A program made the position numbers and the translations under genes. 64,000 nt of DNA from contig JBMOKY010000001.1 in the NCBI GenBank assembly GCA_049325535.1, positions 813,942 through 877,941 of the forward strand, read 5' to 3'. Each line of letters starts with the position of its first letter. Position 1 is the stretch's first letter. Positions 18,021-33,892 of the stretch are shown in pieces. This DNA comes from Patescibacteria group bacterium. GTDB taxonomy: Bacteria > Patescibacteriota > Patescibacteriia > UBA10025 > JAHIVO01. The notes under the pieces are model-generated. The model searched no databases and was not told where the DNA came from. It saw only the letters and a list, made by a program, of their open reading frames with translations.

Positions 18021-18560
18021 TTAATACAGCGCGTATTCCCACCCTGGTTGCCACTGCCCGCTCCGGCGCCAGTCTGACTGAATCGCCTCGGGCCAGGATT
18101 TTTTGTTGCATAGAACTTCGAGCGCCAGTTGCGGCGCCTGATGTGCAACTATCGCCACGCGCTTGCCGTCATACCGAACTTTGAGAAATGCCAGTACATC
18201 TGCGACACGCCGCTCGACATCGTGATAACTTTCGCCGTTGGGGAATCCGGTGCTGATGTACCGCTCTAAATCATGTTTGAAGTGGTCGGGCTGGCCGTTC
18301 CACTTCCCATAGTTTGCTTCGCGCAACCGCTTGTCCTGAATTATGTCATAGCGTCCACCAAACGCCAGCCGGGCAGAGTCAACCGCCCGTCTCAAATCAG
18401 AACAGAATACCGCGTCAAACTGCTTACCCTTCGCCATCTCGCCTAATATTCGAGCCTGCTCAACACCGAGTTGCGAAAGCTCGCCAGGCAACCAACCGGT
18501 GGCAATCCCGGCTTCATTATCAGTCGTGGTGCCGTGAACGAAGTAGGTAAGGTGAATCAT
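18021..18560 (-). CDS. Histidine phosphatase family protein (phosphoglycerate mutase-like)
   Basis: N-terminal LTYFVHGTTTDNE (the RHG-type catalytic His motif context). 179 aa. 4-nt overlap with the upstream Nudix gene. Confidence 0.6.
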   Translation of the reverse strand: MIHLTYFVHGTTTDNEAGIATGWLPGELSQLGVEQARILGEMAKGKQFDAVFCSDLRRAVDSARLAFGGRYDIIQDKRLREANYGKWNGQPDHFKHDLERYISTGFPNGESYHDVERRVADVLAFLKVRYDGKRVAIVAHQAPQLALEVLCNKKSWPEAIQSDWRRSGQWQPGWEYALY

Positions 18561-19468
18561 ATCTGTCGACGCTCCTTGGCCATTTCTTTCTCGACCGCGG
18601 CTAATACCTGAGGTAAATCCTTATACACAAAAGAGGTGAACTGCGCTTTATCCTCCTCGCGCAGGCCACGCAACTTCTCCATCGGCCACCATTCGAGGCA
18701 CGTTGCCTTGCCATCTTCGAGCCGCAGCGTATCCGTGCCCTCTCGAAATCGATACAGATACATACAGCGAAATGCATAATTAATCATTCCATTCTTTTGC
18801 TGATTGCTCTGGCGCTTATTTTTATACATGAAAAATAAATCCTCCGGCTGGACCCGTATCCCCGTCTCCTCTTCCATTTCCATAATCGCCGCGCCAAGGT
18901 ATGTCTGGCCGGCGCTCACATGGCCACCCACCGATGTGTCCAGCTTGCCCGGTGCAATATCTTTATCCGGGGCTCGCCGCTGAAGCAGGATATCCCCCTT
19001 CGCATTATAGATAAACACCCCAACCTCCCGGTGGAGCTCGGCATTCATGTGAATTGCATGACGGTCTCCTTGCCCGATGACATGGTCATGCTCATCCACA
19101 ATATCGAGCCGCTCGGAGCTGCCTGATGATCGAGGAAATTTCAAAACCACAACCATGAGGAATACGCCAACCGCCGGCACCAGATACACCAAATCAAACC
19201 AACCCACCTGGTCAGTGATGGTAGTAATGACATTAAACCCGGCAACCACCAGCGCACCCCACCATGCCCAGCGCCGTCCTCGGCCCAAAAAATACGCCAA
19301 CGTGCCGATGAGCAGTGCATTGACCAATCCAACTGCGCTGTATAGGTAGCGGTAATCGGATCCCTGCCAGAGCCACCACGCTGACCAGCCGATCCATAAA
19401 ACAGACACGACATACATCGCCCACAGGGTCACGCGAATTCGTCGAGATGGCGTCTCTTTCATAAAAAC
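18557..19468 (-). CDS. Nudix hydrolase fused to an N-terminal multi-TM domain
   Basis: Nudix box GGHVSAGQTYLGAAIMEMEEETGI. About 120 N-terminal aa form 3-4 TM helices. Start taken at the internal ATG (19468) to avoid overlap with the upstream gene; the ORF track opens at 19492. Confidence 0.6.
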   Translation of the reverse strand, partial: VFMKETPSRRIRVTLWAMYVVSVLWIGWSAWWLWQGSDYRYLYSAVGLVNALLIGTLAYFLGRGRRWAWWGALVVAGFNVITTITDQVGWFDLVYLVPAVGVFLMVVVLKFPRSSGSSERLDIVDEHDHVIGQGDRHAIHMNAELHREVGVFIYNAKGDILLQRRAPDKDIAPGKLDTSVGGHVSAGQTYLGAAIMEMEEETGIRVQPEDLFFMYKNKRQSNQQKNGMINYAFRCMYLYRFREGTDTLRLEDGKATCLEWWPMEKLRGLREEDKAQFTSFVYKDLPQVLAAVEKEMAKERRQI

Positions 19469-19472
19469 CATG

Positions 19473-20084
19473 TTAATGCTCGTTTGAGGCAATCACCGAT
19501 CGTTTGTTTACAAAAAATCCATAATACACCGCAGTGAAATTGAGTACCATGTGCGCTGCTGAAGCGACGATCAAATTGGGGAATACGGAATATAGGGCGC
19601 TGAAACCAAGCCCCGCTACCAGTGCCAGCGGCAGATGCACTCGCCAGTTTCCATAGATGCTATGCATGATGGCAAAAAGAACGGCATTGATGATGACGGC
19701 CGCCCAGACGACGTCAGTCAGCTCAATCAACTGGCGCAGAGAAAATGACATGAACACGTACTGCTGGCCGATGCTGATGGGGATGAACCAATATCGAAAA
19801 TGCGTGTCCTGACGCCAGTCGGTATGGGGCGCCTGACCCAATACCATCGACAGCCAACGCAAAAAAACGCACCCCGTCACCGCAAATATCCCATAGGCCA
19901 ACAGTGTGGCGACTATATAGTCGGTATGGATGCCGATATCGGCCAGGGTGGTGCGTCGAATGAAAAAAACACCGCTGATAGCCAGTACCACCCCGGTAAG
20001 TAGATACCACCGCCACCGAGCGCGGATCATGCCGGAAGTAATCAATGCCAGCGGTAGGATTATCATAAAAACGAATTCGACCAT
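19473..20084 (-). CDS. CPBP-family intramembrane metalloprotease (CAAX protease-like)
   Basis: FxxxH (AVLFAIMHS) and HxxxN (AAHMVLNF) motifs in TM helices. Start taken at MVEFVFMII (20084), adjacent to the upstream stop; the ORF track opens at 20162. Confidence 0.6.
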   Translation of the reverse strand: MVEFVFMIILPLALITSGMIRARWRWYLLTGVVLAISGVFFIRRTTLADIGIHTDYIVATLLAYGIFAVTGCVFLRWLSMVLGQAPHTDWRQDTHFRYWFIPISIGQQYVFMSFSLRQLIELTDVVWAAVIINAVLFAIMHSIYGNWRVHLPLALVAGLGFSALYSVFPNLIVASAAHMVLNFTAVYYGFFVNKRSVIASNEH

Positions 20085-20085
20085 A

Positions 20086-21036
20086 CTACTTATAATACAC
20101 CATTTCAAAGTAACTTGTGGTTGGCGCTGCGGTAGTACCGGCCAGGATGCCGGAATTGGCATGGTGCAGTACGGTATACCCGGTTATTCCTCGCTGAGAC
20201 AGCCAGAAGAGCAGCAGTGCTATCGAGGGCGGCGAATCCAGGTAATCATTGAAGCGCGCGCCAAACGACAAAATAGTCTGGTAGTCGAGCGTCTCCAGAG
20301 CGGCCCGTGTCACATGGTCATGCGCCTCAGCTTCTGGCACTGACAGGTAATGGGAAAAATCGACGGCCGCCACGACTACGGTTTGATCATCGAAGTGCTG
20401 ATCCAGCAGCGCCACCAGCCGCTGCAGCTCCGGCAGCCGCAATTCCGCTTTCAGAATAACCGGTACGACGGTCGTTCCGGGCAAGTAATGACCAATAAAT
20501 GGCATGATGGCTGATACCGAATGCTCATTGACCGCTACGTGATCATTGGCCAAGGCATATCCCCCGTCAACCAGCGCCTGAACCAATCCTTGATCGGCTT
20601 CGACGAGCCCATTTGCCGTTTTCCAGGAAGCGGCCGTGGTCTGCACCAAACCGCTGCCGACCTCGTGGTGATTCGGTCCGATCAGAATGATACGCTGGGG
20701 CTGCTGCGACTGCAACCCCTGAAAAAAATGGGCGATATACTCCCCGCGGGTAAAATCATGGGGGATAATGGCACCCAGTACTTTTTTTTCCGGAAACGCC
20801 GGCCCGAGCTGAATCGCCCGCTCTACCGAACGCTGGAACTGATTTGGGTAGTAGTACGGCGTTTCCAGAATGCGTACTGATTGCGGTCTGTTCATCTTCG
20901 GATTACCAGCATCAACCGTACTGATGATGGTACTGCTGATGGCGACGATGCCCGGCAGGGCGATGGCCAGCACCACGATGAAGTGCCAGCGTTTCAGTGT
21001 GCGGCTATTCGATGGTGACGCTGGTGGATGTGCCAT
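20086..21036 (-). CDS. MEMO1-family (UPF0103) protein with N-terminal signal anchor
   Basis: AIIPHDFTRGEYIAHFF and ILIGPNHH motifs resemble the MEMO1/AmmeMemoRadiSam protein B family. 316 aa. Confidence 0.45.
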   Translation of the reverse strand: MAHPPASPSNSRTLKRWHFIVVLAIALPGIVAISSTIISTVDAGNPKMNRPQSVRILETPYYYPNQFQRSVERAIQLGPAFPEKKVLGAIIPHDFTRGEYIAHFFQGLQSQQPQRIILIGPNHHEVGSGLVQTTAASWKTANGLVEADQGLVQALVDGGYALANDHVAVNEHSVSAIMPFIGHYLPGTTVVPVILKAELRLPELQRLVALLDQHFDDQTVVVAAVDFSHYLSVPEAEAHDHVTRAALETLDYQTILSFGARFNDYLDSPPSIALLLFWLSQRGITGYTVLHHANSGILAGTTAAPTTSYFEMVYYK

Positions 21037-24000
21037 AATTCACACTGGAGCGCACCACGAATCCCTGCACCACCGGCGCATCGGCAGTAAAGGTACCCTT
21101 GCCAGTCACCAGGGCGTAGTAATAAAACTCCTGGGACGTCCGGCCGGTCCAAAATTTTACCGCCTGACCATTGACCTCGTAGGGATACCGGTACAACTGT
21201 TCATACGGTACATTTCGAGAAGAAAGATTGGACAGCAGTTTCAAACCGGCCGGCAGATAATCGGTCACCTGATACTCCGTATCCAGAGCACCGCTGCTGA
21301 TTGACGGTTTCAGTGTCACCCGGACGATATCATTTGCCCGGAATATCGTCGTTGGTTGACCATTGACGGTGTACTCCCGCGTGATGCTCAGATTCGCATC
21401 AGTGAGCGCCGATGCAGGGTCGACCGGCTGTTGGTAGGAGCTTATCACTCCGACTTCGCCCTCGATACCGCTGAACGTGATGGCCGAGAGCTGTTCTGGG
21501 GTTACTGACAGTGCATAGGTATCTGCATCTTCCAGAATAACTGATTTTGTCTCCCCATCAAGCGTATAGCTGAAACGTACCGGATCTCCGCTCAAAAGCG
21601 GTACTGCCGTCTGAATATACGCCAGCTGATCGATCGTATGCAGCGTCAGATTAGCCGGATGCGCCAGCGCGTATTGATACAGTTTTGGAGCCTCTTCCGA
21701 GGACACTGCCGCAGCGAGCACGGCCGCCTGGTACGTATACTCAGTATAGTCATCCTGGGTAGTGCCGAGCTGGACTTCGATATACGGATCAGCAGCATGG
21801 CCGTGCTCATTCAAGACCTCTTGCAGCAGGGTAGCGGCATACTCGGAAGCACCGAGCTGAGCCACCGCCCGTGCCAGATACAGCTTCAGCTCTGCGGAAA
21901 CATCGTGGTGTGCCATGAAAATATTGATATCAGTCAGTACGGGCTCACCGAGATTTGCCAATCCCAGCAAAGCATAGACAATCTCATCGGTGTTACTCTG
22001 GCGGTTATTGAGCACGCTGTAGAAATAATCACGGCCGGCAATCGCATCAAACAACCCAGGTGCCACTCCAAATGTCTTCGCGGTGGTCAATAACTCAGCC
22101 GATGAATAGGGCAAGAGGGATATGCCACCCTCAGGCAATTGGTAATCGGTAAAGGTGATGGCCGGAAGCGTGCCGTCTTCGCCGAAATACTCATTCAGCA
22201 GCGATTGAGCCTGATACCGTCCGAGCTGTTGCTCAATCCGGTCGCCGTACGACCAGATCAGCGCCTGCAGATCACGGTAAAACTGGCCCCGTTCGAGATT
22301 GGTAAAGACCAGGGATGTGCGGCGGTCCGCGCTACCGGAGAGCGGGGCGGCTGGTTCCAGCCGATAATACTGCGTCGTACCGACGGTGATATGGGAATCA
22401 TGGTACTGCATGGTTTTGATCACAGCATCGGTAGAGCTCCCCTGTTTTCCTTCCACGCGGATCTGATGGGTGCCCGCCGGAAAATCCGGGAGTCCCACCG
22501 CCACGGTGTCCTGGGCACCCGCTGAACGGGTAATCACATCCTCAGAGAATCCGGGAAACGTGATGGTATAGGTCACCGCCGTATCTGGATCGACCGCCCG
22601 ACCGAAACTCCGCAGCAGCACCTGTGGCGCGTCCCCCACCACATAGTCCCCGGCTACCGCCACGTCCACGAAATACGGCTGAGTGGCGATGAGTGCGGTT
22701 TGCGCGGCTTGTGCCTGCAGATCCTTGGTCAACGCATGTACGGTAGTCTGCCAGGACGTAATATTGTCCGGCAGCTTAAACGTAACCGAGGCGTTTCCGG
22801 ATCGGTCAGTGGTGGTGCTGCCGAAATACGCGATGTCCTGAAAATTCTGGCGGCCACCACCCTTTTCATTGTGTACGTAGATGCCGTCCGCGATGAAAGT
22901 ATGGTACGGTTCGGTAGTCAGATTGTATACGTCAATCTGATGATACTGACGGATAATCGAATGAATCACCACGCGACTGCCCTGCTGGTCGATGAGCCAG
23001 TCTCCGACCCGTGCGCTGCCGATCGTCTGCCACGACCCATTCAGCAAAACGACATGTTCCGGCGTGACGCGCAGGGAACCATTGATCACCAGATATTCCG
23101 CCACGCGGTGCTCAAATGTATTGGTGACGGTGGCACTGACCAGTTCATCGCTCCCGACCGCCGGATGCGTGGCCACTGAATCACCGATCCGAATCTCCCC
23201 AATGTGTTTGGTCGTGCCATCTGCCATGAGGATGGTGGTATCGCCGCTGAAACAGCCTCCCCCCTCGGCCATGGCATTCAGCTCTGCTTTATGCGTCTGG
23301 TATGAATACACAATCGGTGATGGTAAATACTGATACAGCGTACTCAACACCTCTGCAGGATTTGCCCACTGGATGGCGGTCAGCGCCTCGTCGATGGCGG
23401 ACACATTGACCGTCGCGGTCACGGGATTATTGGCAGAGTCAGTCACATGAATATCCAGAGTCACATCTTCACCCGGACGATACGCCGGCTGATCCGGCGA
23501 CAACTGAATCTGCAGAGCTTTCAGACTCCGATCATAGTTCAGTTGTAGACCGTCAGTCAGGGCATACCCCCGACCGTCAAAATAGAGTCCATATACGTAG
23601 ATATTTGGGGCATAGCTCTCCCGAAACGTAAATGACATGCCCGGCTGATTGGTAGGATAGAGGTCAAACAGGTTGGTCTGACCTTTGAAGAAGAGGATGT
23701 TTTTTTCCTGAGTGGCACCGACTATTTCATCATTCCGGTACAGAGATACCGCCACATTATCTCCGGGTCGAAAATCGCCTATGCCGCTCTCGTCCTGAGC
23801 GTCCACGGCCACATGATACTGGACAAATCCCTGCGAAGCCGCCCAGTAGTCCCATGACCCCTGGTATAAGTACGAGGTCGAGGTGGCCTCCCGGCCATCA
23901 GGATCGGTGACGCGGACTTCGATACGATAATTCTGATCAGCTGCCGGCTGAAAACCGGCAGTATAGGCACCGTCAGTGTTGGTTACTGCCGAGAGGGTGG

Positions 24001-26440
24001 CAATTTCATCCGAGTGTGACTGATAATCATAAGTTTTATACGTTTTTTTGCTGATGATGTCATAGCGTGTACCGGTTTCCGTCTTGGTATAGTATTCGTG
24101 GAATACCGTCATGGCTATAGCGGCATTAGGAATAGGATCGCCCTCATATTCCCAAGAAAATTCATCAGCAGCGGCATTGATCGTTTCTAAATCAATCGCA
24201 TGTACCGAGCCCGATACAAAGCCTTCCTGGTTCACGCTACTATCCACGGTATAGCGAGGACCAAATGAATAAATGTACGCATCGGTATAGATGCCGGACA
24301 ATTCGGCATTGGTCGGATGCACGGAGAAATATTCATACTCCGGATAATACCCCCCGCTGTAGCTCGTGCCCAGCACTACCCGTGCCGTGCCATCCGCATC
24401 GGTCGTCACTGTGCCGGTGCCCAGCGCTCCCGTATACTGCAGCTCCAGATTACCCACCGGCGTCCCATCATAAAACATGGCGGTGATGTCAAAGATAGCG
24501 TCTTCCCCTTCGAATATCGCTTTCTTTGGCGTCGACACTTCAATTTTATACGCAGGCTTCGTATAGGTGGCCACCTCCACATACTGTGACAGTATTTCAG
24601 TGCCGTCTACGGTGACACCCAAACGATAACTGCCCGGATTGAGGTGACGATAGTCGATCGACCCCTCATACGTCCCGTAGTCAGACACCGGTACTTCCTG
24701 AGTAGCGATGATTTCATCCTCCATCGACGTGTAATAATTGGCACTTTTCGTAAACGTGATGGTCGCCGCCTGTGGCCCGCGAACATCCGCCCGGGGGCGG
24801 ATGACCCCCCAAAACTTCACGCTGTCGTCCGGCGAGTAGAGTGTCCGATTGGTATACAGATACGTCCAGTAGTCCCGCGAAGCATTATTCATGAACCCAT
24901 TAAACTCATAGTGCGGAATCACAGGCACCAGTAGGTCGCCACGCTCGGTATGGACGGTAAAAAAACTGGCGGCGAGTGGTGCGTCGGATGACCGGTCAGC
25001 GATGTCCGATGGCGTAGCAAAAGAAGCTAAGCCGTCACGGTCAGTCTCCGCGCTGAATGCCGCATCGCCGGAATATCCGATCGAGGCGTCACTGACCGGC
25101 GCCTGCGTACCGAGATCATGTACCCAGATAAACGAATTGTCGGGGCTGGATTGATAGCTGGCGGTCAGCTGCCCCACCTGCAGAAATGCCTGGGCTTTTG
25201 TGTCGCCATAGGGTACCTGAACCAGATAGTACCCGGCCGGCAGAGCTTCCGGGAATTCAATGTATTGGAAATAATCAGATGATTTCTTTTCCGCGTCAAA
25301 AGTTGCCTGGAGCGTCAGTGAATCCGTGGCATACGGATGCGTACGCCAGGCATACGCCGCCCAATACGGCAAGCTGGCGAACGACTGTACGGCATCGGTA
25401 AATTCGCGGAATGAAGTAAATGCATATACCTGAACCGGAATGGCGGTCAGCCCGGAATTATATTCACTCACGGTCATGACCGGCGCTTCAGAAGACGGAT
25501 ACTCAAAAAATTCCTTAGTAAAATCAAAATACCCATACGACTCTTGAGATTGATCAGTTTCGAACTGAAACTGGTAATCAGCAACCAGGGTGTCGTCGCT
25601 CCCGTCCAATGGCAGTCCGGCCCGTACCGTGACAGTGTAGACGGTCATGGGTGCCAAGCTATCGGGCACAAATACCAGCGTTTTGCGGTATTGCTCAAAA
25701 CGCCCACTCACCGCCGGCGAGATGGATACATACTGCTCATACTCCCGGAAATTTTCATGGGAAAAAGTAATCTCGATGCCAGAGTCACGCGGCACGGTGG
25801 TTGCCTGATCCCGCGGCACGGTGGACATTACTTTAAACGTGTCCTTGGTCTGATAGGCCCACTGATACTCACGTTTCTGTTCATCCCCAACCGTCTGTGC
25901 GACCATGCTGAATTGATAAATTGTACCATCGTCCAGCGGTTGACTCGGGGTAATGGTAAACGTATTTGTATCAGAAGAATGCACCGCGTAGGCAATGGCG
26001 GGCTCGATCTGCAAATTACCCTCCACGGTGGCTACGTCAATTGGCAGTGAGCTGGTCAAGGTAAATGAGGTGGCGGTATCCACGCCCAGAATATCTCCTG
26101 AATCCGCCGACAGCTTCAGCTGCACGTCCGCATCAGTGAGAATGACCGGGATAGTCCGGGTATCCGAAATCGACTCGGGCCCAAACCAGACATACCCAAA
26201 CAATCCACAGGCGACCAGGGCGGCGAGCGAGGATAGAACGATTAATGACCGTTTCATAGACATGGGAATAAATGATAAAAATGCTGGCTGGTCAATCTCC
26301 TGCGGCGATTGACGACGTTGCATTTCCGACGCGGCGATCAGGCGCGCCCTGATCCGTCGGCTGGCTGCATCGTCCATCGTCGGCGGGGTGCCATGATGTA
26401 ACAGCCGTTTGACACTATGGATATCGAAAGGGGTTTTCAT
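21005..26440 (-). CDS. Giant (1811 aa) membrane-anchored MG-domain/alpha-2-macroglobulin-like surface protein containing an internal Hint domain
   Basis: Cytoplasmic N-terminus of about 65 aa, then a TM helix (LIVLSSLAALVACGLFGYVWF), then a long array of Ig/MG-like segments. A2M-domain-like LPDNITSWQTTVHA motif is present. A TED-like helical region (LLGLANLG...) lacks the GCGEQ thioester. A Hint domain lies at residues 1063-1191. The start overlaps the ECF sigma stop (ATGA). Confidence 0.7.
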   Translation of the reverse strand: MKTPFDIHSVKRLLHHGTPPTMDDAASRRIRARLIAASEMQRRQSPQEIDQPAFLSFIPMSMKRSLIVLSSLAALVACGLFGYVWFGPESISDTRTIPVILTDADVQLKLSADSGDILGVDTATSFTLTSSLPIDVATVEGNLQIEPAIAYAVHSSDTNTFTITPSQPLDDGTIYQFSMVAQTVGDEQKREYQWAYQTKDTFKVMSTVPRDQATTVPRDSGIEITFSHENFREYEQYVSISPAVSGRFEQYRKTLVFVPDSLAPMTVYTVTVRAGLPLDGSDDTLVADYQFQFETDQSQESYGYFDFTKEFFEYPSSEAPVMTVSEYNSGLTAIPVQVYAFTSFREFTDAVQSFASLPYWAAYAWRTHPYATDSLTLQATFDAEKKSSDYFQYIEFPEALPAGYYLVQVPYGDTKAQAFLQVGQLTASYQSSPDNSFIWVHDLGTQAPVSDASIGYSGDAAFSAETDRDGLASFATPSDIADRSSDAPLAASFFTVHTERGDLLVPVIPHYEFNGFMNNASRDYWTYLYTNRTLYSPDDSVKFWGVIRPRADVRGPQAATITFTKSANYYTSMEDEIIATQEVPVSDYGTYEGSIDYRHLNPGSYRLGVTVDGTEILSQYVEVATYTKPAYKIEVSTPKKAIFEGEDAIFDITAMFYDGTPVGNLELQYTGALGTGTVTTDADGTARVVLGTSYSGGYYPEYEYFSVHPTNAELSGIYTDAYIYSFGPRYTVDSSVNQEGFVSGSVHAIDLETINAAADEFSWEYEGDPIPNAAIAMTVFHEYYTKTETGTRYDIISKKTYKTYDYQSHSDEIATLSAVTNTDGAYTAGFQPAADQNYRIEVRVTDPDGREATSTSYLYQGSWDYWAASQGFVQYHVAVDAQDESGIGDFRPGDNVAVSLYRNDEIVGATQEKNILFFKGQTNLFDLYPTNQPGMSFTFRESYAPNIYVYGLYFDGRGYALTDGLQLNYDRSLKALQIQLSPDQPAYRPGEDVTLDIHVTDSANNPVTATVNVSAIDEALTAIQWANPAEVLSTLYQYLPSPIVYSYQTHKAELNAMAEGGGCFSGDTTILMADGTTKHIGEIRIGDSVATHPAVGSDELVSATVTNTFEHRVAEYLVINGSLRVTPEHVVLLNGSWQTIGSARVGDWLIDQQGSRVVIHSIIRQYHQIDVYNLTTEPYHTFIADGIYVHNEKGGGRQNFQDIAYFGSTTTDRSGNASVTFKLPDNITSWQTTVHALTKDLQAQAAQTALIATQPYFVDVAVAGDYVVGDAPQVLLRSFGRAVDPDTAVTYTITFPGFSEDVITRSAGAQDTVAVGLPDFPAGTHQIRVEGKQGSSTDAVIKTMQYHDSHITVGTTQYYRLEPAAPLSGSADRRTSLVFTNLERGQFYRDLQALIWSYGDRIEQQLGRYQAQSLLNEYFGEDGTLPAITFTDYQLPEGGISLLPYSSAELLTTAKTFGVAPGLFDAIAGRDYFYSVLNNRQSNTDEIVYALLGLANLGEPVLTDINIFMAHHDVSAELKLYLARAVAQLGASEYAATLLQEVLNEHGHAADPYIEVQLGTTQDDYTEYTYQAAVLAAAVSSEEAPKLYQYALAHPANLTLHTIDQLAYIQTAVPLLSGDPVRFSYTLDGETKSVILEDADTYALSVTPEQLSAITFSGIEGEVGVISSYQQPVDPASALTDANLSITREYTVNGQPTTIFRANDIVRVTLKPSISSGALDTEYQVTDYLPAGLKLLSNLSSRNVPYEQLYRYPYEVNGQAVKFWTGRTSQEFYYYALVTGKGTFTADAPVVQGFVVRSSVNYGTSTSVTIE
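22868..23254 (-). other. Hint / bacterial intein-like (BIL) domain embedded in the giant protein
   Basis: 129 aa. Block A CFSGDTTILMADG has Cys1; block B is RVTPEHVV (TxxH); the C-terminus is YNLTTEPYHTFIADGIYVHN. The next residue is Glu, not C/S/T. The domain is flanked by GGG on both sides. Confidence 0.75.
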
Positions 26441-26994
26441 AAATCAGCGACGTTGAGTAATTGCTTAAGTTTTCGGATGCCTCGAAATTTAAGCACTCGG
26501 ACATGAACCATGGTGGTCTCCATCAGCGCCGCGATGTCCGCCGTATCCATATCCTCGAGACATGACAGCTGGATAACTCGGCGCATCTGATCGGGAAGTT
26601 GGACAATTGCCTGGCGGACCCTTTCGCTACGCGCGTCATATGTCAGTTCAGCCGGCTCAACGGCCACGGGCGAATGCCGGCCCACTACGATCTGATCCAG
26701 AGAAAGCGTCTCACCCCGCTGTCGATAATGATCGACAAGGCGATGGCGGGCTATTTGAAAGAGCCAGGCGGAAAAAGGAGTGGCAGTGCGGGCTACAAAG
26801 CGCGGCAAAGAACGGATCATTTCCAGGAATACCGTCTGGGTCAGGTCCTCGGCTGTTTCCCGGATGCCGACCCGATAGTAAAAGAAGCGGTATATTCGCT
26901 GATGAAATTCATCATATAGCCGCCCAACGCTCTCCGTATCGCCCGATTGAGCCTGGCGTACGATACCCAGAATATCCGCTTCATCAACCCCCAT
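26437..26994 (-). CDS. ECF (sigma-70 family group 4) RNA polymerase sigma factor
   Basis: Region 2 ETAEDLTQTVFLEMIRSLPRF and region 4 HTH DTADIAALMETTMVHVRVLKFRGIRKL. 185 aa. Confidence 0.8.
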   Translation of the reverse strand: MGVDEADILGIVRQAQSGDTESVGRLYDEFHQRIYRFFYYRVGIRETAEDLTQTVFLEMIRSLPRFVARTATPFSAWLFQIARHRLVDHYRQRGETLSLDQIVVGRHSPVAVEPAELTYDARSERVRQAIVQLPDQMRRVIQLSCLEDMDTADIAALMETTMVHVRVLKFRGIRKLKQLLNVADL

Positions 26995-31955: not shown

Positions 31956-32355
31956 GGGAGCGATCTAAAATCGACAGTAGTACGTTGATACGAATTGCAA
32001 GCCGTCTCATGCTATCTCGAGACGCTAAACTCCCGATAGCACTACACAAATGCCAATTCATTTGTTTCAAAAGTGAAGGCTACGTTCGCTTCGGCGTTCC
32101 GTATGCCGGCACTCGCAGTTGCATAACTATCCAACTGCCATTACCTATGTGATGTCCGATATCATAGCGTAGTGACATTTTCGGAATACGACGCCGGTGT
32201 CGTCACTGCCGGTGTCCGACCAATTGTGTGACGTAGGATCATGGGGTTTTTGCGCGTTTCATACCCATGACCCGAACCTATGAGACGCGCTACGCTTGTA
32301 GAGATTTGTACCACGGGCTGCATGGACAGGGGTGCGATGCCCCTCGCTTCCACCA
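31956..32355 (+). ncRNA. ssrA: tmRNA (SsrA), standard one-piece form, about 400 nt
   Basis: Lies immediately downstream of smpB. 5' end GGGAGCGAUCUAAAAUCGACAG resembles E. coli GGGGCUGAUUCUGGAUUCGACGG. 3' end GGAC-AGGGG-UGCGAUG-CCCCU-CGCUUCC-ACCA has the T-arm, acceptor and ACCA architecture of GGACGCGGGUUCAACUCCCGCCAGCUCCACCA. The 5' GGGAGCG pairs with the 3' CGCUUCC. The candidate tag ORF ends ...PALAVA with a UAA at 32124..32126. Confidence 0.65.
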
Positions 32356-33675: not shown

Positions 33676-33750
33676 GGGCCCATGGTGTAGCCCGGTTAAC
33701 ACGCCTCCCTGTCACGGAGGAGATCAGGGGTTCAAATCCCCTTGGGCCCG
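33676..33750 (+). tRNA. tRNA-Asp (anticodon GTC)
   Basis: Cloverleaf folded by hand: acceptor GGGCCCA/UGGGCCC, D-stem GUGU/ACAC, anticodon stem CCUCC/GGAGG with loop CUGUCAC, T-arm AGGGG-UUCAAAU-CCCCU, discriminator G. CCA is not encoded. Confidence 0.85.
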
Positions 33751-33892
33751 CTCTGAACCGTAGAATTACTCCCTGCCCGCCCTCGCGAGTACCGGCATTT
33801 TTTTTGAATTGACAAAACACCCCACCAATACTAAGGTAACGTAATTCAAAACAAAGACTCAAACAGTTCACCATCAAAAAACGAGGTTTATC

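Follow-up and report, generated by a model that had tools for sequence, protein, structure and literature searches.

The window analysed here, a stretch of 64,000 nucleotides from a Patescibacteria group bacterium (GenBank assembly GCA_049325535.1, contig JBMOKY010000001.1, positions 813,942 to 877,941), contains a gene for an alpha-2-macroglobulin (A2M)-like protein, and the segment at aa 1063-1191 of this protein is, near certainly, a Hint domain of the type-A bacterial intein-like (BIL) kind, placed between Gly1062 and Glu1192. Profile alignments and a predicted structure put the domain inside the bait region of the A2M-like host, and the combination of the two is conserved across the Candidate Phyla Radiation (CPR). 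The plus-strand reading of 22868-23254 is meaningless, as the feature lies on the minus strand, where aa 1063 corresponds to 23252-23254 and aa 1191 to 22868-22870. The gene, the domain and its junctions are as follows:

21005..26440, minus strand: A2M-like host gene of the Hint domain, an open reading frame of 1811 aa with a membrane-anchored product
22868..23254, minus strand: Hint domain of the type-A BIL kind, aa 1063-1191, 129 aa, from Pfam, NCBIfam, PDB profile and fold search
23252..23254, minus strand: codon of Cys1063, the predicted N-S acyl-shift nucleophile; Cys in 43/43, 79/79 and 90/90 homologues
23054..23065, minus strand: block B TxxH, Thr1126-Pro-Glu-His1129; His invariant in 43/43, Thr invariant in the alignments examined
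22868..22873, minus strand: His1190-Asn1191, block G, for predicted Asn cyclisation and C-terminal cleavage; HN in 43/43, 79/79 and 90/90
22850..22867, minus strand: C-terminal flank Glu1192-Lys1193-Gly-Gly-Gly-Arg1197, with a non-nucleophilic +1 residue and a near-invariant +2 Lys
23255..23305, minus strand: bait-like linker, disordered and sequence-variable, aa 1046-1062, ending in a conserved AEGGG, with Gly1062 as the predicted acyl donor

An earlier reading of the same DNA, made from its letters alone (the sequence-only reading), had proposed a complete BIL-type Hint domain at exactly this place and named a search against Hint profiles among its checks; the profiles, all above their cut-offs, and the fold search bear it out. 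In Pfam, aa 1062-1191 match PT-HINT with 35.5 bits (cut-off 27.7) and Vint with 34.2 bits (cut-off 27), and the isolated segment matches PT-HINT with E=3.8e-10 as well as Hint (PF01079) with 31.2 bits (cut-off 29.7). The NCBIfam model intein_Cterm gives 23.9 bits (cut-off 15.6). When the PDB was searched with the family profile, the best sequences were BIL2 of Tetrahymena (E ~2e-17 to 3e-18) and, from Clostridium thermocellum, the BIL with PDB entry 2LWY (E 5e-17 to 2e-16), and RecA inteins followed at ~1e-8 to 1e-9. A word-indexed homologue search with a 156-aa Hint segment returned a single unrelated protein of 168 aa. The AlphaFold model of aa 1000-1270 has a predicted local distance difference test (pLDDT) score of 84-98 per 10-residue block in the Hint core, and its top Foldseek matches in the PDB are BIL2 from the BUBL1 locus of Tetrahymena (template modelling score, TM, 0.76-0.79, root mean square deviation 2.3-2.5 A), next 2LWY (TM 0.84, 1.9 A), and then DnaB, RecA and gp41-1 inteins and Hedgehog, with E values from 1e-11 to 1e-6 over all of these. 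The structural ranking is thus the same as the ranking by sequence profile, i.e. BILs are ahead of true inteins. It had been conceded beforehand that the segment might be just another immunoglobulin (Ig)-like macroglobulin (MG) domain; this is ruled out by the fold search, where no Ig or MG fold is among the top matches listed.

The local sequence, with a slash for each junction, reads ...NAMAEGGG/CFSGDTTILMADG...RVTPEHVV...IADGIYVHN/EKGGGRQNFQD...FKLPDNITSW. It has the features of a type-A BIL: Cys1, TxxH in block B, a terminal His-Asn, a +1 residue that is no nucleophile, and a closer relationship to BILs than to inteins. Class 1 mini-inteins such as Mtu RecA and Ssp DnaB share the fold, blocks A, B and G, a conserved insertion site and a pattern of presence and absence, but they differ from the present domain in its lack of a +1 Cys, Ser or Thr (here Glu), in the similarity, which reaches only the E values given above, in the exported host and in the absence of an endonuclease. 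A true class 1 intein is therefore ruled out by the +1 residue and by a similarity weaker than that to BILs. No homing endonuclease is present in the domain, which is a 129-aa mini-domain without insert, nor is there evidence of homing, as Hint and host diverge together (r=0.69).

The residues at the two junctions were compared in three samples of homologues (n=43, 79 and 90). The sequence-only reading had accepted that poor conservation of Cys1063, His and Asn in orthologues would count against it, and all are invariant in these samples. The Thr and His of block B are invariant in every sample where they were examined, as is Phe2; His69 of BIL2 is the equivalent of the catalytic His1129. The residue at -1 is Gly in 40/43, 76/79 and 88/90 proteins. 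At +1 there is Asp or Glu in ~75%, otherwise Gln, Asn, Ala or Ile, with Ser, Cys or Thr in only 1/43, 6/79 and 4/90, and the +2 position is Lys in 43/43, 74/79 (in the remaining 5 the Lys is at +3) and 89/90. The junction Lys is confined to the Hint-bearing members and is missing in Hint-less loops. Since the catalytic residues of both junctions are invariant, selection seems to act on complete excision rather than on a single cut. The same Hint clade is also seen in other proteins with ...GGG/C...HN/KGGG... junctions, and in tandem arrays, head to tail, in which nothing but 'KG' or 'KGGG' linkers separates 2-5 complete Hints (P0122, P0127, P0132, P0135, P0136, P0151, P0179, P0211 and P0229). 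The layout of the arrays is ...GGG/CF...VHN/KGGG/CF...VHN/KGGG..., and their sources include Mucilaginibacter (a protein of 4119 aa) and Omnitrophota.

The host was likewise described beforehand as A2M-like, with the insertion at the bait-region position and no thioester in a downstream region resembling the thioester-containing domain (TED), and on each of these points the analysis agrees. The 1811-aa protein is a 100% match to the database protein P0001, and Pfam finds Big_5, MG2, A2M_BRD and A2M in it. Its main parts outside the Hint are:

23378..23773, minus strand: A2M_BRD bait-region domain (BRD), aa 890-1021; Pfam E=1.6e-10, 41.9 bits with a cut-off of 22.7
22652..22819, minus strand: Pfam A2M domain, aa 1208-1263; E=1.4e-8; LPDNITSW at aa 1223-1230
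21596..22291, minus strand: TED-like helical domain without the thioester motif, predicted at aa 1384-1615 (helices at model residues 765-996)
26183..26251, minus strand: single transmembrane helix, ~aa 64-86 by hydropathy scan, containing C78
26252..26440, minus strand: cytoplasmic N-terminal extension, a possible anti-sigma segment, aa 1-63 (the first hydrophobic helix starts at aa 64)

The LPDNITSW motif is where it had been noticed, downstream of the Hint, and starts 32 aa after Asn1191. The AlphaFold model of aa 620-1811 (pLDDT 86.3, predicted TM score 0.70) contains, besides beta-sandwich domains, the helical TED-like domain and, at the C-terminus, a beta domain, and its Foldseek matches are ECAM (E=1.9e-45), ECAM together with Salmonella A2M in the range of 1e-43 to 1e-45, and further C4, C5, CD109 and A2ML1. 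With the C-terminal 1192 aa as the sole query sequence, the PDB yielded Hint matches only and no A2M; profiles are required to see the latter. By model and profile the host is a genuine member of the A2M superfamily with MG array, BRD, CUB, TED and C-terminal MG fold. The model is closer to activated A2Ms (4ZIQ TM 0.52, 9FX3 0.45, 4RTD 0.40; activation by protease or methylamine) than to native ECAM or Salmonella A2M (TM only 0.26-0.27), and the activated structures that it resembles include ECAM (TM 0.52) and CD109 (0.45). This activated-like shape may be a bias of the prediction, or the family may rest in a 'collapsed' state.

The thioester motif CxEQ was found nowhere in the 1811-aa protein and in none of the 43 Hint-bearing homologues. 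It is absent from the TED position in the whole family, Hint-less members included; the string occurs elsewhere in 4 Hint-less members, at positions from 803 to 1432 that differ between the proteins. There is hence no link between the Hint and the missing thioester, and the idea that the Hint compensates for a lineage-specific thioester loss is ruled out. The 1811-aa protein has two cysteines only, C78 in the membrane helix and C1063 in the Hint. In 17 of the 43 Hint-bearing homologues the Hint Cys1 is the sole Cys of the protein, and Hint-less relatives have a median of ~4. This scarcity may reflect selection against disulfide trapping of an extracellular catalytic thiol, or may be a simple lineage effect.

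The Hint is an exact 129-aa insert in a conserved Gly-rich loop, AEGGG/C...HN/EKGGGR. The only low-confidence stretches near it are its two flanks, aa 1046-1062 and aa 1192-1195, both with pLDDT below 50; the first of these, the bait-like linker, corresponds to residues 427-443 of the aa 620-1811 model. The 12-17 residues before Cys1 vary in both sequence and length and the junction itself is highly conserved (column entropy ~2.2-2.3 bits in the linker as opposed to 1.05 at the junction). In a profile built from 55 Hint-less homologues, the corresponding loop '...ggaekgGegg..R.dF.D' aligns to ECAM chain residues 903-927. In the profile of the Hint-bearing family, the part that directly follows the Hint corresponds to residues 721-800 of the human A2M chain, the human bait being residues 690-728. 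To convert the numbering, the ECAM chain index plus 39 was used, which reproduces the Arg923, Leu942 and Arg956 named by Fyfe et al. In ECAM, Arg923 and Leu942 bound the disordered bait, and Arg956 belongs to the cleaved bait region (Fyfe et al., PMC4498604). The insertion point falls at ECAM ~948-952, between Leu942 and Arg956, and the preceding linker aligns to the ECAM bait segment 923-947. As judged from these alignments and from the model, the Hint sits inside the A2M bait region.

The sequence-only reading had called the architecture very unusual, and this part of it does not hold. Among the best 120 homologues 43 have the Hint and 77 have none. The equivalent of aa 1045-1215 comprises 157-179 residues in the Hint-bearing proteins (170-179 in those of full length); in the Hint-less ones it comprises 41-93 residues, mostly 42-47, so that the difference is an exact indel of the size of a domain. 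According to record annotation the Hint-bearing proteins are from Patescibacteria, Parcubacteria and Uhrbacteria, and the Hint-less ones are mostly from Bacillota, Clostridia and Dehalococcoidia. In a scan of GTDB with one genome per species, a Hint with A2M flanks was encoded in 130 species genomes, in lineages that include Parcubacteria and the Kerfeld-, Uhr-, Collier-, Nomura-, Magasanik-, Peregrini-, Peri-, Gracili-, Sacchari-, Portnoy-, Dojka- and Levyibacteria. When 1.84 billion cluster representatives were searched exhaustively with phmmer, 217 matches fell below 1e-30; the best 150 of the 217 contain 106 single-Hint proteins, 90 of which have an A2M PDNxTSW-like motif after the Hint, and the architecture occupies at least 90 clusters at 50% identity. 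It is CPR-wide, hence common. Many contigs with this CPR-type gene are titled 'uncultured Gammaproteobacteria', 'Pseudomonadales' or 'Nanoarchaeia' (loci L010, L013, L016-L019, L025, L028, L032 and others); such titles of metagenome-assembled genomes are probably placeholders or wrong labels, and taxon counts taken from titles call for caution.

A neighbour-joining tree built on the host part places the Hint-bearing proteins together, with several Hint-less ones nested among them. P0031, which has no Hint, matches Hint-bearing P0022 with 85% identity over the host part, and Hint-less P0070 is 82% identical to Hint-bearing P0035. The DNA flanks of the first pair align well, AEGGGGGGG-R in P0031 corresponding to AEGGGA[C...HN]IKG-R in P0022. 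The two loci of this natural minus/plus pair, L005 (P0031) and L006 (P0022), come from two runs whose accession numbers are close to each other, SRR22388028 and SRR22387873. Pairwise identities of Hint and host are correlated (r=0.69; means of 45% for the Hint and 36% for the host), and the catalytic Cys1, TxxH and HN are kept across proteins that have diverged to 28% identity. Going by these comparisons, the Hint is old, mostly vertically inherited, under purifying selection and sometimes cleanly lost. A recent horizontal acquisition was considered and is ruled out, as there is no GC anomaly (Hint 55%, gene 54%) and the identities of Hint and host go together. The existence of close Hint-less relatives means that the host fold does without the Hint, and it argues against the earlier suggestion of a trigger in so far as the Hint would be an indispensable one.

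The same data bear on the possibility that the Hint is a selfish or neutral passenger similar to a mini-intein, or an inactive structural insert without chemistry. The polymorphism between close relatives, the mostly vertical inheritance and the unremarkable composition could be read in this way. However, the absolute conservation of Cys1, TxxH and HN down to the lowest identities contradicts an inactive insert, a classical intein would require the +1 Cys, Ser or Thr that is missing here and in >90% of homologues, no homing endonuclease is there to drive its spread, and retention in most CPR classes despite repeated losses suggests a benefit. We give this explanation only a slight chance.

What the domain does is best approached through the chemistry of known type-A BILs. 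By analogy with them, we put forward tentatively, at somewhat less than even confidence, that the Hint excises itself after export and probably rejoins the bait loop. The host protein would be exported by Sec and folded outside the cell. Cys1063, aided by Thr1126 and His1129, would undergo an N-S acyl shift that turns the Gly1062-Cys1063 peptide bond into a Gly thioester, and Asn1191, aided by His1190, would form a succinimide, by which the Asn1191-Glu1192 bond is cut. The thioester would then be attacked by an amine of the C-terminal flank thus set free. This could be the alpha-amine of Glu1192, by the route proposed for type-A BILs, or else the epsilon-amine of Lys1193, the near-invariant residue, by the route known from Tetrahymena BIL2. 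With the Hint released and the halves rejoined, the loop AEGGG-EKGGGR would resemble the Hint-less AExGG-EGG-R; hydrolysis of the thioester, which gives two chains, would be a competing side reaction. In this scheme the Hint would be a self-removing maturation step that delays or conditions the completion of the bait loop, without a part in the mature machine.

Both halves of the scheme have precedents. Type-A BILs are characterised by a His-Asn end, which sets them apart from type B, the absence of a +1 nucleophile, an N-terminal thioester and C-terminal cleavage via Asn cyclisation, and they can ligate by aminolysis, the freed amine attacking the thioester (PMC4031507). In BIL2 the epsilon-amine of a Lys forms an isopeptide with the C-terminal Gly of the N-extein, and several substrates are conjugated (PMC8616854). 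The crystallised BIL2 mutant, RGG-A(C1A)F...LAH-A(N143A), aligns end to end with the Hint family profile. The sequence-only reading had taken Glu at +1 to make classical splicing impossible; the Glu is confirmed, but it bars the classical mechanism only: type-A BILs can ligate by aminolysis all the same, and BIL2 forms a Lys isopeptide. Re-ligation is favoured because the chemistries of both junctions are conserved, because a residue with an amine is kept next to the junction where there is a Hint and only there, because the ligated loop would mimic the Hint-less one, and because near-identical Hint-less proteins have a continuous chain. Since the loops of P0031 and P0070 are continuous, a continuous chain is a functional state of the host protein. 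The few members with Ser, Cys or Thr at +1 are compatible with ligation as the selected outcome.

Several points weigh against this proposal. In the type-A BILs studied 'cleavage products dominate' (PMC4031507), the conservation of the catalytic residues is expected under every hypothesis of an active Hint and does not discriminate between them, and the +2 Lys may have a catalytic or structural role instead of being the nucleophile. Several independent losses make it hard to explain why a mere self-removing element is retained in most CPR lineages without a benefit, and the greater closeness of the model to protease-activated A2M (4ZIQ) than to the native form would, weakly, fit a cut loop.

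The main rival view is that the thioester is hydrolysed and cleavage takes place without ligation, so that an anchored MG1-6/BRD half and an MG7-CUB-TED-MG8 half would stay together non-covalently. The Hint could excise itself or cut only one junction, and the outcome could be a constitutive maturation cut, as furin makes in C3, C4 and C5, or a trap that is sprung by itself or conditionally, the latter being what the sequence-only reading had suggested as an intrinsic trigger. Cleavage is the dominant outcome in the type-A BILs studied so far (PMC4031507), a cut in the bait loop is the activating event of A2Ms (PMC4498604), and the halves of the bait-cleaved type II A2M MagD remain associated (PMC5764988). 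The conserved chemistry of both junctions and, weakly, the resemblance of the model to activated ECAM and CD109 also agree with it. On the other hand, the 82-85% identical Hint-less relatives with an intact loop would have to sit in a radically different, uncut state and yet retain the whole protein, a trap that is always sprung would be of no use for inhibition, the near-invariant +2 Lys would be left without a role, and no sign of a regulatory input was found. We regard cleavage without ligation as rather unlikely, if still a serious contender.

A further possibility, to which we assign a low probability, is that the Hint acts as a reactive centre, i.e. that a Gly1062 thioester at the bait loop is resolved by the amine of a Lys, either in cis (Lys1193) or in trans. 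The cis version, if true, would be an isopeptide-linked 'splice', an outcome not known to have been described in bacteria; in the trans version the Hint thioester would stand in for CXEQ and a target would be covalently tethered to the surface of the CPR cell. In its most explicit form the Hint would stay in place with the Gly1062-Cys1063 thioester in equilibrium, and the N-terminal half would be transferred onto the amine of another protein, either a protease attacking the bait segment or a surface protein of the host cell, and would thereby replace the missing CxEQ thioester. BIL2 does exactly this chemistry, with ubl4 transferred onto ubl5 or Ras and with several substrates (PMC8616854). 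An unhindered Gly-Gly-Gly would serve as acyl donor, the Hint directly adjoins a variable, disordered, bait-like segment, CxEQ is missing from the TED position of the family, and where Cys1 is the sole Cys (17/43) disulfide trapping would be avoided. But the Hint does not track the loss of the thioester, given that Hint-less members lack CxEQ too, the invariant terminal Asn would be superfluous for conjugation in trans, and the invariant cis Lys would compete with external amines. This last, trans-acting form seems to us a little less probable still.

It is useful to compare the domain and its host with the systems they resemble. The type-A BILs described before (Amitai 2003; Dassa 2004; 2LWY) have the same Hint fold, Cys1, TxxH, His-Asn, lack of a +1 nucleophile and extracytoplasmic bacterial hosts. 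However, they are scattered in variable proteins, whereas here the position is fixed and orthologous within one conserved family of a whole superphylum, and the junction flanks are, unlike those of known type-A BILs, conserved as GGG/C...HN/[DE]K-G. BIL2 of Tetrahymena thermophila (6Y75/6TMM) is the best PDB match in both sequence and structure, and its N-extein also has Gly-Gly before Cys1 (RGG/C...HN). The Lys of its C-extein is the nucleophile that forms the isopeptide (PMC8616854), while Lys1193 is a candidate nucleophile only; BIL2 is moreover eukaryotic, cytoplasmic, Zn-responsive and located between ubiquitin-like domains, and the present host is an exported A2M-like protein. PT-HINT (PF07591) is the best Pfam match, and some NCBI records are automatically named 'polymorphic toxin-type HINT domain-containing protein'. 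PT-HINT domains precede and release a C-terminal toxin, whereas here the A2M-fold half MG7-CUB-TED-MG8 lies downstream. A toxin-releasing PT-HINT is ruled out, as the Pfam scan detected no toxin domain in the downstream part.

As for the host, bacterial A2Ms of type I (ECAM/YfhM, Salmonella A2M) and type II (MagD/YfaS) share the MG-BRD-CUB-TED-MG fold and a membrane anchor, ECAM in addition has the homologous bait loop (ECAM 923-956), and type II proteins likewise lack CXEQ (PMC5764988). The differences are that the proteins described here occur in organisms of the monoderm, Patescibacteria and Bacillota type, that they are held by an N-terminal transmembrane anchor and not by a lipoprotein anchor, and that they often have an extracytoplasmic function (ECF) sigma gene as partner and a Hint in the bait loop. 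Neither PBP1c nor a mag operon was found in the window or in the five related loci with listed genes. The complement proteins C3, C4 and C5 are cut during maturation in the equivalent linker, which is inserted in MG6, and their native form has two chains. There the cut is the work of furin, acting in trans, while any cut in the present protein would be autocatalytic.

The genes next to the host gene are as follows:

26437..26994, minus strand: ECF-type sigma-70 gene, Sigma70_r2 E=1.7e-16 and r4_2 E=3.2e-9; its stop overlaps the start codon of the A2M-like gene
20086..21036, minus strand: Memo-like gene, the downstream neighbour, Pfam Memo E=2.2e-26
19473-20162, minus strand: membrane protein containing a CAAX protease domain (Rce1-like), encoded downstream on this strand
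18557-19492, minus strand: NUDIX protein whose hydrophobic N-terminus comprises several helices, encoded downstream on this strand

A sigma homologue is located directly upstream on the same strand in 31 of 65 related loci. The overlapping sigma gene, the 63-aa cytoplasmic N-terminus and the one transmembrane helix form an arrangement similar to that of sigma/anti-sigma pairs. No anti-sigma domain was matched by Pfam on aa 1-120 of the A2M-like protein; one Hint-less homologue, P0092, has a zf-HC2 (PF13490) anti-sigma domain, and N-terminal extensions of ~40-100 aa are found in Hint-bearing and Hint-less members alike. An anti-sigma role of aa 1-63 is possible in view of the adjacency, and the family may include sigma/anti-sigma sensors with an A2M-like ectodomain, independently of the Hint. 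If the Hint were a reactive centre, the upstream ECF sigma gene could help to signal its action to the cytoplasm. In most loci of the Parcubacteria type the A2M-like gene is followed directly by a Memo-like gene, which is the case in 39 of 70 related loci (among L007-L086) and also at L001, L002 and L006; the Memo-like protein has an N-terminal hydrophobic segment in the window and is fused to a PGA_cap domain in L006. The window also contains a tmRNA gene (31956-32355, tag ANSFVSKVKATFASAFRMPALAVA) and a tRNA-Asp(GTC) gene (33676-33751), ordinary housekeeping features that confirm a bacterial chromosome.

A full-text search for literature that pairs A2M, macroglobulin or bait region with Hint or intein, or Hint or intein-like with CPR or Patescibacteria, gave nothing relevant; one Patescibacteria paper cites a bacterial A2M structure, only within a list of adhesion-type domains. 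In public records the proteins are automatically named 'Ig-like domain-containing', 'alpha-2-macroglobulin family' or 'polymorphic toxin-type HINT domain-containing' protein. The architecture thus appears to be undescribed, though the domain type itself is known; what is new is the fixed position in the A2M bait loop, the CPR-wide conservation and the GGG/C...HN/[DE]K junction signature. In the A2M family the cut of one loop is the trigger and the target is classically captured by an internal thioester, and here a whole bacterial superphylum has a module predicted to cut itself and to generate a thioester in that very loop of an A2M without thioester. Any of the products considered, be it a rejoined loop, two chains, a Lys isopeptide or an adduct in trans, would amount to a so far unrecognised route by which a macroglobulin is matured or armed, and it would give BIL domains, whose biological role has so far been vague, a defined and conserved physiological context. 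Patescibacteria live attached to the cells of a host, and the Hint-A2M proteins belong to the largest that they have on their surface. Given this lifestyle, and the pairing of about half of these proteins with an ECF sigma factor, they are candidates for devices of host interaction or protease sensing.

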